Origin: Escherichia coli
GTDB taxonomy: Bacteria; Pseudomonadota; Gammaproteobacteria; Enterobacterales; Enterobacteriaceae
Assembly: GCF_041248615.1 (NCBI RefSeq)
Contig: NZ_CP158426.1
Length of the DNA stretch: 64,000 nucleotides
Strand: one strand, 5' to 3'
Shown here: positions 51,894 to 60,223 of the stretch, piece by piece
Position numbering within the stretch: the stretch's first letter is position 1
Layout: each line of letters opens with the position of its first letter
Position numbers and translations under genes: made by a program
The notes under the pieces: model-generated
What the model was told of the DNA's origin: nothing
What the model saw: the letters and a program-made list of their open reading frames with translations, nothing else
The model's database searches: none

Positions 51894-53237
51894 TTAACGG
51901 TAGCGTTTTATGGGGCTATTTTGATCCTGTTCAGCCAGCCAGGCGAGCTTTTCGCCAATCTTGCCTTCAAGGCCCCTGTTTGTCGGGAAATAATAGCGTG
52001 TTTGTGCTATTTCCGGCGGGAAGTAAACCTCACCGGCAGCATAAGCGTTTGCTTCATCATGAGCGTAACGATATTCCTGCCCGTAGCCCATTTCCTTCAT
52101 TAATTTCGTCGGCGCATTACGCAAATGAACCGGCACGTCATAATCCGGACGTTCGCGAGCATCCGCCAGCGCGGCTTTAAACGCAGTGTAGACAGCGTTG
52201 CTTTTTGGCGCGCAGGCCAGGTAAACAATCGCCTGAGCAATGGCGCGTTCTCCTTCCGCCGGGCCAACTCGGGTAAAGCAATCCCAGGCCGCAATTGCCA
52301 CCTGCATCGCTCGTGGATCAGCATTACCCACATCTTCCGACGCTATCGCCAGACAGCGACGCGCGACATATAACGGATCGCCACCGGCAGTAATAATTCG
52401 CGCATACCAGTACAGCGCCGCATCGGGTGCGCTACCACGTACCGACTTATGCAGTGCGGAAATGAGATCGTAAAAGCGATCGCCTTTGTTATCAAAGCGG
52501 GCGCTACGTTCACCGGCGATTTCGGTCAGTAATTCAGGCTTCAGGACCCGCTTACCGCTATCATCGACTTCGGCCATATCCGCCATCATTTCCAGCGTAT
52601 TTAACGCCCGGCGCGCGTCGCCATTCACCAGTTCAGCAATGGCGCGTCGCGTTTCATCTGGCAGAACTATATCCTGACCACCATAGCCACGGGTTTTGTC
52701 TTCCATCGCCTGAGTAAGCACCTGCTCAATATCCTCTGTACTCAGGGATTTCAGCAGATAGACACGGGCACGGGAAAGCAGTGCCGAGTTAAGTTCAAAC
52801 GACGGGTTTTCAGTGGTTGCGCCAATAAAAGTGATGGTGCCGTCTTCAATATGTGGCAGAAATGCATCCTGCTGGCTTTTGTTGAATCGGTGAACTTCGT
52901 CAACAAAAAGAATAGTGCGGCGACCAGCATTGCGGTTTTGCCGAGCGCGCTCGATCGCCTCGCGAATCTCTTTCACGCCAGAAGTAACGGCAGAAATACG
53001 TTCCACATCAGCGTTCGCATAGCGGGCAATCACTTCAGCGAGGGTTGTTTTGCCGGTACCCGGTGGCCCCCAGAGGATCATAGAATGCAAATGCCCGGCT
53101 TCGATAGCACGCGGCAACGGCTTCCCCGCAGCCAACAAATGTTGCTGGCCGATATACTGTGCTAAATTTTCTGGCCGCATACGCGCGGCCAGAGGTTGAA
53201 AAGTATTATCCGAAAAATCGAGCGACAGATTGCTCAC
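51894..53237 (-). CDS. rarA: replication-associated recombination protein A (AAA+ ATPase)
   Basis: 447 aa; Walker [10 protein letters not shown]. Confidence 0.9.
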
Positions 53238-53247
53238 TCAGGTGCCT

Positions 53248-53859
53248 CTACTTACGTTGATCATCTACCGTTACGCCTTGCGGCGGGGTGAAGGTAAATT
53301 TCGCTGCATCCACAGTCCCATTTTGCTGGGATTTCAGCTGATAACTGCTGCGCTGATCGTCCTGCTCCACCGCGCTAAACTGATGGATTGTGCCATCACG
53401 TCCCACGTTAATGGTGAACTGCTTCAGATTGCCATTGCTGGCTTTCGGCGTCAGGACAAAGTCATCGCCATTCTGTTTGATATTGTACTGCTGCCAGTCG
53501 CTGGACTGGTTGCGGGCAATCAGCATAAACGGCGTATTACCGGTGGCATCTTTCAGCCAGGTTGCCGTAGCTTGCTCAACGAACGGGTTATAGAACCACA
53601 GTGTTTTACCGTCAGAAACCAGAATGCTTTCATCAGGTTGAGTCATATGCCAGTTGAATAAGTTTGGACGTTTCACCCACAGATCGCCCTGGCCTTCCTG
53701 CACCGCCGCGCCGCTACCGTCAGTCACTTTTTGTGTGAAGCTGGCGTGGAAGCTGCTGACTTTATCCAGGCGGCTTTTAAGATCGCTTGCGGCATCAGCC
53801 CAAACGCTGCTTGCTACTAAGCTTGAGAGTAATGCACAGGTGATGGCAATTTTTTTCAT
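53248..53859 (-). CDS. lolA: outer-membrane lipoprotein carrier protein
   Basis: 203 aa with signal peptide [21 protein letters not shown]. Confidence 0.9.
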
Positions 53860-54017
53860 CATTATTCCTCAAATTACGTCACTCCCGATCGGGAGTTCCC
53901 TCTACTCTCTATTCCAGGCTAATAATCAGCTTGAGGAAAGAAGAAAATACTGAATTTTCAGTTGTTAGAGTGCCGGATGCGACGCTACCGAGCCTTATCC
54001 GGCCTACGATGCATTAA

Positions 54018-57000
54018 TTAGTCAAACGGCGGTGGGGCCAGCACTTCACGATTACCGTTGTGCCCCTGTTCGCTGACAATCCCCTGCGCTTCCATCTGTT
54101 CGATAATACGCGCTGCACGGTTATAACCAATGCGGAACTGACGCTGTACGCCAGAAATTGATGCTTTGCGTTTTTCAGTGACAAACTGCACCGCCTGATC
54201 GAACAACGGATCCAGCTCTTCAGCGCCATCGAAACCGCCCGCGCCACCTTCGCTTTCGCTGTCGGAGGTGATGCCATCAACATACTGTGGGCGACCACGC
54301 GCTTTCCAGTCCTGCACCACGGCATGAACTTCCTGATCGCGAACAAAAGCACCATGGACACGTACCGGCAACGTGGAGTTCGGCCCAGAGTAGAGCATAT
54401 CCCCCATACCCAGCAGTGATTCCGCACCAGCCTGATCAAGAATGGTACGTGAGTCAATCTTACTGGATACGGTAAAGGCGATACGGGTCGGAATATTCGC
54501 TTTAATCAGACCAGTAATAACATCAACCGATGGACGCTGCGTTGCCAGTACGAGGTGGATACCCGCGGCACGGGCTTTTTGCGCCAGACGTGCTATAAGC
54601 TCTTCCACTTTTTTACCTACCGTCATCATCAGGTCGGCAAATTCGTCCACCAACACCACAATGTACGGTTCTTTTTTCAGCACCGGATGCTGGGCATCCA
54701 TACTGTCACCCGGCTTCCAGTACGGGTCTGGAATCGGACGCATCATGCGATCGGCTTCAGCAATTTTTTCGTTATAACCCGCCAGATTACGCACACCTAG
54801 GGCGGACATCAGCTTATAACGACGTTCCATTTCATTTACGCACCAGCGCAAAGCGTTGGCAGCATCTTTCATGTCGGTAACGACTTCCGTTAACAGATGC
54901 GGAATGCCTTCATAAACCGAAAGCTCCAGCATTTTCGGGTCGATCATGATGAAACGCACATCTTCTGGCTGTGCTTTATAAAGCATGCTCAGGATCATCG
55001 CGTTCACCCCGACAGACTTACCGGAACCGGTAGTCCCCGCAACCAACAAGTGCGGCATTTTCGCCAGATCGGCAACCACCGGCTCACCGGCGATATCTTT
55101 ACCCAGCACCACGGTTAATGGCGACGGATTATCGCGGAATTTGGCGTTATCCAATACTTCGCGCAGATAAACGGTTTGTCGTTTTTTATTCGGTAACTCC
55201 AGACCTACATAGGGTTTGCCAGGAATAACTTCAACGACACGCACCGCCACCGTCGAAAGTGAACGGGCAAGGTCCCGTGACAAGTTAGAAATGCGCGCCG
55301 CTTTTACGCCCGGTGCCAGGTTAAGTTCAAAGCGAGTGATAACCGGCCCCGGAGAGTAATTGACGACATCGGCTTTAATACGGAAATCAGCCAGACGCGC
55401 TTCCACCAGACGCGCCATTTGTTCAAGCGCAAAGGTATCTACCGGCTCCACTTCGCTCGGCGGCGGTGTCAGCAAATCCAGAGAAGGCAGCGGCGTCGTC
55501 GGTTTATGCAACGGACGGCTGTCACCATTGCGCATCAACAGCGGATGAAGCAGGGTATCATGCGGCTGCGGCGCAACTGGCTGTTGCGGCTGCTGATATT
55601 GCGGCTGCTGTGCAACCGGCTGTTGCGGCTGCTGATATTGCTGCTGCGGCGCAACCGGTTGTTGTGGCTGCTGATATTGCTGCTGCGGTGCAACCGGCTG
55701 TTGCGGCTGCTGATACTGCGGCTGCGGCGCAACTGGTTGCTGCGGCTGCTGATACTGTTGCTGCGGTGCAATCGGTTGTTGCGGCTGCTGTACAGGTTCA
55801 ACAATTGGCGTAAACAGCGGTTCGTGTGGACCATCATCCAGCAACGCTTTCATTGGCGAAAATTCAAAATCATCCAGCGTGAACGGATTCGCCCCAGCCG
55901 GTTGTTCGCCGGAATAACGTTGTTGTTGAGTTTGAGCAAACTGACGAGCCAGTTCAGCCTCTGCCGCAGCATCTGCATCTTCTGCGTTCGCGGGCACATC
56001 ATGTTGATACTGTTCGCCATAGCGTTGCTGCTGTGTCTGGGCGAACTGACGTGCCAGTTCATCCTGCTGCATCGCATCGATTTCATCATCGTTATAATGA
56101 TCGCCGGAATCGTACTGATTGCGCTGGGCTTCACGGGCTTTTTCTTCTGCCGCACGCTGTGAGGGCAGCTTAATACCGTAAGACGCCAGTTCACGACGAG
56201 TTGGCACGCGGATACGTTGCGGTCGTGGCAACTGCGGGCCAATCCCCTCTTTGACCTGCGGACGCGGTCCAGCGCTATTTGCCAGACTGAAGACTGGCGC
56301 GGCAACGGTTGCGGCAGCCCCCGTCGCCAGTGTCGCTTTTTTCACGCCAGATGCCAGAGGGGAAACAGCGGCAGCGGCTTCCACTGGAGGTACTGCTGCA
56401 ACAGAAGGTGCTTTCAGCGAAGATTTGATCGGTTCTGGTTCTTTAACCGGTTCAGGAATCGGTTGATACCAGGCCGCAAGTTGTTCACGTTCACGGGCAC
56501 GCTTCTCTTCCACTTCTTCAAAATAGTAAAGCGGCGGACGCGCGGGTTTTGTTTCTTCTACAACGGGTTCAGGCTCCACAACAGGCTGCTGTTCAACGGG
56601 TTGCGGCTGTTGGTACAACGGCTCCTGAACGGCTGGCTGCTGATAAGTTTGCTCAGTCTGGTATGTAGACTGTGGAGCAAAAGTGGATTGCTGCTCTTCG
56701 GCTTGCCAGGCGTTACCTGCCGCCGATTGTTCTGGCGCAGGGGCGTAATACGGCTGTTGCGCAGACTGTTCCGCCGCAGTTGCGTAATACGGCTGCTGAA
56801 CAGGTTGTTCCGCCGCAGGAGCGTAGTAAGGTTGTTGCACAGGTTGTTCCGCTGCTGGCGCATAATACGGCTGCTGTGGCTGTACAGGTTGTTGCAGCGG
56901 CTCATTATATTGCACTGCAGGCTGCGCATATTGTAGCTGCTGTGGATAACCTTCCGGTGCAGGAGCAATAACCGGCTCTCCCGTTTGTGGCCCCGGTACA

Positions 57001-58085
57001 GGCTGCCAGGCTACTGTAGGTTGTGCAGGTGGAACATCAACAGAGGCAACAGGCGGCGTCTGAGTCACAGGTTCAACCGGCGCAGCCCAGCTTTGTGTCG
57101 CAGTGGTAGCAGCAGCTGCTACAGCAACAGGTTCGGTAATTGGCGCACCGTTTAATAATGGATCGTATTCGTCATATTCTGGCTGCGTTGCACGATTGCC
57201 CGAAAAGAGGACGTCGTCAGGGTCGGCAGCCACACCGCGTGCAGTGTAGGTAATCTCTTCTTCATCATCCATCCGCTTACCGGAGAACAACGCAGCATCT
57301 GTTTGCCGCCCCATCGGATTAATGAATTTTTCCGCCAACCGTTTACGACGCGCTAGCGCGCCGCGAAGAATACGGGCACGGCGTGATTCATGCTGTTTGC
57401 CGTGATTTTCATCTTCATACTCTTCGTCGTCTTCATACTCATCTTCATCGACCCAGGTATCATCGCGACGGGTACGATTACTGGCGAAGGTGAGAATATT
57501 TAAAATCCAGCCGCCGAGTTTTTCAGCAATGGTCACCCATGACCAACCGGTGAACAGCGTCAGACCCGCAGCCCAAACGCAGAGCAGCGCAATAGTTCCC
57601 CCGCTACTGTGTAGCAGTGGTTGTAGCGTAGTGCTTAGTAAGCTGCCAATGACGCCACCGGAGGCAAAATACCAGATATCGTCAGCGTTGATTGCCGCCA
57701 GACCACAGGAGGTAAGGATGAGCGCCAAAACGCCAATGATGCGTAGCGAAACGGCAAAATAATCAATGTATTCGTCGCTGGACTGATGACGCCAGGCAAA
57801 CCAACAACCGCCGACAATAATGACGGGAATGGTGTAAGCCATCACGCCAAAAATAAAGAACAGCGTATCTGCCAGCCATGCACCGGGCATCCCACCTAAA
57901 TTATGGATAGGTTCATGCCAGGCCGTTTGCGACCAGCTGGGGTCCGAAGGGTTAAAGCTTAGTAAGGCAGCCATCAACCAGACGGCAAACAGGACAATAA
58001 GGATCAGCAACGCCTCCAGAAGGCGGCGGCCGCTACTTAACTTTGTCAATGTGACTTCTTTGTCTTCAGTGTATTCCTGGCTCAA
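54018..58085 (-). CDS. ftsK: DNA translocase FtsK
   Basis: 1355 aa; N-terminal TM domain, Pro/Gln-rich linker, C-terminal motor with Walker A GTTGSGKS. Confidence 0.95.
55560..55800. repeat. tandem ~48-bp repeats encoding the Gln/Pro-rich FtsK linker
   Basis: repeated [14 protein letters not shown] units; antisense long ORFs here are artefacts. Confidence 0.6.
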
Positions 58086-58219
58086 GAAAGGCTCTCCAGG
58101 TTACAGGCTTTTCCTGCCCGATGCTAAAACGGACAACAGTACCAGGTTACCCCAGTACTGTTGCTGTATGGATTAACAGGAGTGTAATCAAAATACGCCG
58201 ATTTTGCACCTGTTCCGTG

Positions 58220-58714
58220 TTAGCGCGTCTTAATAACCAGACGATTACTCTGCTTGACTTCTTCCATAACAACGTATGTCCGTGTGTCATTGACGCCAGG
58301 CAGACGCAGCAGGGTTTCCCCCAGCAACTTACGGTAAGCTGACATATCCGGCACGCGTGTTTTCAACAGGTAGTCGAAATCACCGGATACTAAATGACAC
58401 TCCTGAATTTCTTCAAGTTTTTGTACAGCGGTATTGAATTGTTCAAACACATCCGGTGCGCCACGATTCAGAGTAATCTCAACGAATACCAGAAGTGATG
58501 CATCCAGATAATGGGGGTTCAGCAGCGCCGTATAGCCCTGAATAAACCCTTGTCTTTCCAGCCGACGCACACGCTCAAGGCACGGCGTTGGGGAAAGTCC
58601 CACACGTTTAGAAAGCTCGACGTTAGAAATACGCCCATCCTTTTGCAACTCATTAAGAATGTTACGATCGATACGGTCGAGATCTTTGCCAGGGCGCTTC
58701 TTGCTATCTACCAT
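58220..58714 (-). CDS. lrp: leucine-responsive regulatory protein
   Basis: 164 aa from MVDSKKRPGKDLDRIDRNIL; track ORF has an 18-codon upstream extension. Confidence 0.95.
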   Translation of the reverse strand: MVDSKKRPGKDLDRIDRNILNELQKDGRISNVELSKRVGLSPTPCLERVRRLERQGFIQGYTALLNPHYLDASLLVFVEITLNRGAPDVFEQFNTAVQKLEEIQECHLVSGDFDYLLKTRVPDMSAYRKLLGETLLRLPGVNDTRTYVVMEEVKQSNRLVIKTR

Positions 58715-59140
58715 TATTATTGTCTCTCTGTATTCCTTCCCTACTCCTGTCTGACCCTGAAACATCACTGTTCAGAGTCGCTACCCGTCACGATAGACCG
58801 AAATCATGAAGATTCACGGCGCGCAATGCCTGGGTCTACGGTGAGAAGACCGTTGCCTTGTGGCAGCTATCGACATCACGAATGGCGTCTGTCCACGCCA
58901 TACGTAGATTTCACTAGCACGGTAAACATGGTATTTACATGCATGGTTATGCGCATATAAGAATACTGTTTTTTTCTTCCTCGAATGTTTTCGCAAAACA
59001 CCAGGGGATTGTCAAAGCAAAACATCGATTTTTAGTACAACATGCCAGATATTCATTAACAGGAGCGTTTATTCATCATTTAATCGGCTTATAAAGCGGG
59101 AAATTTAAGTAGCAGAGGTGATAATGACGGGAGAATTTGA

Positions 59141-60223
<1,083 letters not shown>

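Follow-up and report, generated by a model that had tools for sequence, protein, structure and literature searches.

Copy-number variation of two 39-nt repeat arrays in the linker of Escherichia coli FtsK

Background

The gene ftsK lies on the minus strand of the stretch of Escherichia coli DNA analysed in this study (the window, 64,000 nt), and its product exceeds FtsK of strain K-12 by 26 residues. Which part of the protein carries the additional residues, and is the longer form the expanded one? The initial annotation had reported an expanded Gln/Pro-rich repeat within positions 55500-56950, consisting of about six tandem units of 16 aa, and had considered this low-complexity region as known length-variable sequence and as the cause of spurious antisense open reading frames (ORFs). 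The Pro/Gln-rich FtsK linker of E. coli K-12 has reportedly been described by Bigot et al. 2004 and Dubarry et al. 2010. The linker of E. coli FtsK is known as a long unstructured, Pro/Gln-rich segment of about 650 aa (PMC2673442; PMC5345879).

Results and discussion

The ftsK gene of the window

The gene is an ordinary E. coli ftsK, coding for a DNA translocase of the gamma-proteobacterial FtsK/SpoIIIE family. The identification in the initial annotation was supported in agreement by the Pfam architecture, the gene order and a 100 % match to an annotated ftsK, that of E. coli NRZ14408 (NZ_LT599825.1), over all 4068 nt. The gene is preceded by lrp and followed by lolA and rarA; the order lrp-ftsK-lolA-rarA is that of K-12 and NRZ14408, and the spacer between lrp and ftsK has 134 nt in the window as in the annotations of both references. 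The two protein lengths stated initially, 1355 aa for the window and 1329 aa for K-12, were both correct according to the ORF list and the K-12 annotation. ftsK of K-12 MG1655 comprises 3990 nt and has the same TTG start as the window gene. The two proteins share 1312 identical residues, and outside a single indel 98.7 % of the K-12 residues were identical.

In K-12 FtsK, a linker of about 650 aa joins an N-terminal four-transmembrane (4TM) domain to an alpha-beta-gamma motor, and this three-part layout is shared by FtsK of the window (Table 1). Within the motor, Pfam separated FtsK_alpha (PF17854, aa 866-966, E = 1e-29) from FtsK_SpoIIIE (PF01580, aa 974-1187, E = 9e-88), both well beyond the cut-off, and the Walker A motif was found in the translation. 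ATP-dependent directional DNA translocation and the activation of XerCD are predicted for the protein from its identity of about 99 % to K-12 FtsK outside the indel. The linker was confirmed as rich in glutamine and proline, with 19 % Q, 16 % P, 14 % A and 8 % E in residues 331-850.

Two observations concern the upstream region. The lrp-ftsK spacer contains a perfect palindrome of the LexA-box type, CTGTATGGATTAACAG, at 58164-58179, 79-94 nt before the TTG start codon of ftsK; CTGT-N8-ACAG had only two perfect matches in the window, this palindrome among them. It would fit the SOS-inducible promoter dinH that ftsK is known to have. The cattle isolate E. coli RM8082 (L008, NZ_CP043825.1) has lrp, the gene directly before ftsK, as an annotated pseudogene with a frameshift.

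Table 1 Features of the ftsK locus in the window
Feature	Position	Strand	Residues of FtsK	Evidence and remarks
ftsK CDS	54018..58085	(-)	1-1355	4068 nt, 1355 aa, TTG start; ORF list and translation
FtsK_gamma, KOPS/XerD-interacting winged helix	54036..54218	(-)	1290-1350	Pfam PF09397, E = 2.5e-28
Alpha and beta motor domains, RecA-like	54525..55490	(-)	866-1187	Pfam; Walker A GTTGSGKS
Antisense ORF, 247 codons	55419..56162	(+)		Codon-aligned antisense frame; judged spurious
CVN001 reverse primer, GGCGGCGGTGTCAGCAAATC	55459..55478	(+)		0 mismatches, 0 matches in shuffles; primer from PMC8143711
Linker, low-complexity	55491..57512	(-)	192-865	No Pfam domain
Array A, six 39-nt units QQPQQP(V/I)APQ(Q/P)QY	55557..55790	(-)	766-843	Units in register
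CVN001 forward primer, AACCGGCTGGGGCGAATCC	55885..55903	(-)		0 mismatches; primer from PMC8143711
Antisense ORF, 239 codons	56217..56936	(+)		Codon-aligned antisense frame; judged spurious
Array B, four 39-nt (13-aa) units	56721..56876	(-)	404-455	Units in register
Array-B units 2 and 3, 78 nt (26 aa) without K-12 counterpart	56760..56837	(-)		Unit matching
FtsK_4TM, N-terminal four-transmembrane septum-targeting domain	57513..58028	(-)	20-191	Pfam PF13491, E = 5e-42

Two repeat arrays and the source of the additional residues

The linker contains two separate arrays of 39-nt units, of which array B is situated about 1 kb nearer to the 5' end of ftsK than array A. TRF identified array A at 55561-55790 (period 39, 5.9 copies, 87 % matches, score 334-376), far above chance, and array B at 56725-56876 (period 39, 3.8 copies, 78 % matches, score 172-202). 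Array-A units are 85-95 % identical in DNA; array-B units share among themselves 29-32 of 39 nt, a DNA identity of 74-82 %. The repeat unit measured by TRF has 13 aa (39 nt) and not 16 aa, thus the initial description of about six tandem repeats was right for the number of units in array A, but not for their length.

The protein alignment of the window with K-12 had one gap only, of 26 aa, within array B. Array B comprises four units in the window versus two in K-12 (TRF, 3.8 vs 1.9 copies), and the linker of the window is longer than that of K-12 by these two additional units. Hence FtsK has 1355 instead of 1329 aa because of array B alone. The initial proposal, that a Gln/Pro-rich tandem repeat between 55500 and 56950 differs from K-12 in copy number and in frame, was borne out by alignment and TRF; the array to which the difference had been ascribed was the wrong one. 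Six units starting with QQPQQP were present in array A of the window as well as of K-12 (NC_000913.3; TRF, 5.9 vs 5.7 copies), and the alignment was gap-free there. A repeat number equal to the reference had been named beforehand as the observation that would contradict an expansion, and array A presents this equality; the attribution to array A fails for this reason. Array A is the more conspicuous of the two by its TRF score and, at 5 to 9 units, the more polymorphic within the species, but with six units on both sides of the comparison a gain of length in array A, close to the motor domain, is hardly conceivable as the origin of the extra residues.

Within array B, the exact position of the 26-aa gap is ambiguous: MAFFT puts it at aa 416-441, corresponding to 56763-56840, and unit matching assigns it to units 2 and 3 (Table 1). 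Units 1 and 4 of the window were the best matches to units 1 and 2 of K-12, with 35/39 and 36/39, respectively. Unit 2 of the window was identical in 39/39 to the middle unit of a three-unit allele.

Alleles in E. coli

Full-length ftsK was present in 5,423 of 5,426 E. coli records, and 233 records were at least 99 % identical to the window gene over the whole gene. Each array was searched with its unique flanks, and spans were taken from 60 records at even steps down the ranking of the 5,426 records (Table 2). Array B had 2, 3 or 4 units at about 30, 32 and 35 %, frequencies of a 60-row systematic sample, each accurate to about +/-6 percentage points. The assignment of spans to unit numbers was checked on 11 fetched genes, all of which were in frame and coded for 1329 to 1381 aa, and the copy-number variation of array A was confirmed on the sequences L008, L009 and L012. 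The window allele is one of several common alleles.

Table 2 Array spans in the systematic samples of 60 E. coli records (error about +/-6 percentage points)
Array	Span	Units	Rows
B	601 nt	4	21/60
B	562 nt	3	19/60
B	523 nt	2	18/60
B	Odd lengths		2/60
A	712 nt	5	3/60
A	751 nt	6	22/60
A	790 nt	7	26/60
A	829 nt	8	3/60
A	868 nt	9	2/60
A	766 nt (+15 nt variant)	6 plus 5 aa	3/60
A	Partial match		1/60

The total length of FtsK is homoplastic. A length of 1355 aa was reached by six units in array A and four in array B (A6+B4) in the window, by A7+B3 in L006 and by A8+B2 in L012; 1329 aa were reached by A6+B2 in K-12 and by A5+B3 in L009. With several A/B combinations per length, an allele cannot be safely named from the length of FtsK alone, and the length does not reveal which of the arrays has changed.

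Some records deviated from the general pattern. The annotation of E. coli CRE10 (L133, NZ_CP034404.1) gives ftsK an odd length of 4250 nt and marks both this gene and the adjoining trxB as frameshifted; both frameshifts are most likely assembly indel errors rather than biology. Records labelled as plasmids accounted for eight ftsK matches. A single genome among the 5,426 was without any ftsK match.

Tandem repeats are error-prone in assemblies, and the CRE10 record is a case of frameshifted genes side by side. That a mis-resolved repeat in the assembly caused the length difference of the window is nevertheless extremely improbable, considering the four-unit span of array B in 21 of the 60 sampled complete genomes and the 233 records with at least 99 % identity across the whole ftsK. 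Array B as a whole measures 156 nt, and a short array of units with only 74-82 % DNA identity is trivially resolved by reads.

Direction of the change

ftsK was obtained from at least 120 other genomes with a degenerate DNA pattern for a conserved N-terminal motif. Four array-B units were present in E. albertii. L041, a divergent Escherichia genome that bears the label E. coli, had four as well; its nucleotide identity in the N-terminal domain was 89 %. In Citrobacter, Enterobacter and more distant genera, array B was not recognisable among the matches listed, and no ftsK of E. fergusonii was among them. A unit-by-unit DNA comparison of array B between the window and E. albertii or L041 gave no diagonal signal, with 26-34 of 39 nt shared everywhere. 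As the units have no positional correspondence with the outgroups, the polarity is read from copy number and unit age only, and the outgroups may have gained units independently. The array-B units absent from K-12 share only 29-32/39 nt with the others and hence are old units, not recent duplicates. The copy number of the two outgroups and the age of the units together suggest that the ancestor in Escherichia probably had a four-unit array B and that the two-unit state of K-12 is a contraction.

The reverse has to be considered, a true expansion from an ancestral two-unit array B by a gain of two units in the window lineage within E. coli. It agrees with the nearly equal frequencies of the two-, three- and four-unit alleles, with the homoplastic evolution of the arrays, by which three A/B combinations arrive at 1355 aa, and with the missing correspondence of single units between the window and the outgroup arrays. 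The four units in both E. albertii and L041 speak against it, as do the two units missing from K-12, each with 7-10 mismatches in 39 positions to the other array-B units of the window; we regard this direction as unlikely, though still worth consideration. With a four-unit array B as the probable ancestral state, the term "expanded" of the initial annotation probably described the wrong direction. The two-unit array B of K-12 is a minority state (about 30 % in the sample) and probably derived, so K-12 is no neutral yardstick for an "expansion".

Mechanism and constraint on the units

All array differences seen were whole 39-nt units in frame, save two minor variants (+15 nt, -12 nt). This whole-unit, in-frame pattern suggests that array copy number shifts by gain and loss of entire units, which may occur by replication slippage or by unequal recombination between the direct repeats. 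Array A, with the more similar units (85-95 % identical), was more polymorphic than array B (74-82 %, three states), which is consistent with a homology-dependent rate. The Pro/Gln-rich linker of about 670 residues acts as an unstructured tether from the septum-anchored membrane domain to the DNA-pumping motor. Several alleles of either array coexist in the species, as would follow from the kept reading frame and from a tether that tolerates such changes.

The linker appears to tolerate changes in length. Among the matches listed, 57 complete FtsK ORFs of other Enterobacterales had 1013 to 1418 aa, and a proxy of their linker length ranged from 315 to 719 aa. An indel of 28 aa in the ftsK linker repeat was exchanged between two strains of S. 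Enteritidis and had no phenotype in one assay (PMC6137255).

The repeats that have arisen in this linker differ from genus to genus. At the place of Escherichia array B, FtsK of Shimwellia pseudoproteus (L059) has a tandem array of about eight QPEPQYQQPVQQYQ units. At the site of E. coli array A, the sequence of E. albertii L016 has a run of 11 alanines and no more than 2-3 degenerate units. In a complete-genome record of Kluyvera genomosp. 3 YDC799 (L092), the ftsK frame stops after 310 codons from the conserved start; the gene may be truly truncated, or the stop may reflect a frameshift or a sequencing error.

The codon differences between units were mostly synonymous: 32 of 46 in array B (14 nonsynonymous) and 44 of 73 in array A (29 nonsynonymous). 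Random single-base changes would be expected to give a synonymous share of 20-23 %, compared with the 60-70 % in the arrays. In array B, units 1 and 2 code for 13 identical amino acids, yet 9/39 nt differ. This preponderance of synonymous differences indicates that the peptide motif is constrained and that the linker is more than a passive spacer. From the codon comparison, the 13-aa motif appears to be under purifying selection, while the copy number is free to vary. A tuning of FtsK function by array copy number, through the reach of the tether over the septum as it closes, multivalent contacts with partners in the divisome or self-association, seems doubtful. If it were true, K-12 with its contracted array B would be unrepresentative of about two thirds of E. 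coli.

Alternative reading frames across the linker

Two long ORFs of the plus strand run codon-aligned and antisense to the linker (Table 1). In this frame a stop requires TTA, CTA or TCA as sense codon, and only two of these codons occur between aa 384 and 936 of FtsK. The longest stop-free antisense run had 257 codons versus 239 +/- 64 in 1000 permutations of the linker codons, and 33 % of the permutations reached 257. Three of the other four frames were unremarkable; one antisense run of 94 codons was reached by 3.5 % of the permutations, a marginal value across five frames. The long alternative-frame ORFs arise because the codon composition almost never makes stops on the opposite strand. 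Pfam had no match in the four alternative-frame ORFs tested, an Rfam scan of 53000-59500 found nothing, and the RefSeq annotation of NZ_LT599825.1 has no gene at these ORFs. The initial explanation of the antisense ORFs by composition was upheld by the fit of the codon permutation and the absence of Pfam matches. Real overlapping genes would account for the considerable length of the two plus-strand ORFs, but one third of the permuted linkers give runs at least as long, and with neither Pfam, Rfam nor RefSeq in favour, such genes are very improbable. Gene callers should disregard long alternative-frame ORFs across the FtsK linker.

Array A as typing marker

The generic E. coli MLVA scheme (Lindstedt et al. 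2007, applied in PMC8143711) includes CVN001, a VNTR with a unit of 39 bp and an offset of 250 bp. Its primers are convergent around array A (Table 1), with a predicted amplicon of 445 bp at 55459-55903, and the published formula, (445-250)/39 = 5.0 (PMC8143711), gives the integer allele 5 for the window. Array A and the CVN001 VNTR are the same without difference. Five CVN001 alleles have been reported (PMC8143711), as many as the whole-unit classes of array A in our genome sample, 5 to 9 units. The CVN001 amplicon excludes array B, and no typing scheme using array B was found.

In Salmonella enterica, the ftsK VNTR SENTR2/STTR7 has a unit of 39 bp and 9.3 copies (PMC2430564). It resembles array A of E. 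coli in the gene, the 39-bp unit and the use as typing marker; it differs in species and copy number, and the source gives gene and unit size only (PMC2430564). The sole Salmonella ftsK among the matches listed, from Salmonella arizonae, ended after 230 codons. CVN001 and SENTR2/STTR7, together with the allele survey, substantiate the initial statement that the linker is a known length-variable sequence. The tolA VNTR SENTR1 with a unit of 45 bp (PMC2430564) is likewise an in-frame whole-unit variation in the low-complexity spacer of a membrane-anchored protein; gene and unit differ from those of the ftsK arrays, and the likeness is one of general class only.

Conclusions

We are highly confident in the following reading: the window carries an ordinary ftsK, the four instead of two units of array B alone lead to the 1355 aa of its product, the alleles coexist in a linker that would serve as a tolerant tether, and the alternative-frame ORFs are by-products of composition. 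The length variation of the ftsK linker is real, ordinary, common and already known. Biologically it carries little weight, being allelic variation of a normal kind in a low-complexity linker that is well known, and array A is already a routine typing marker.
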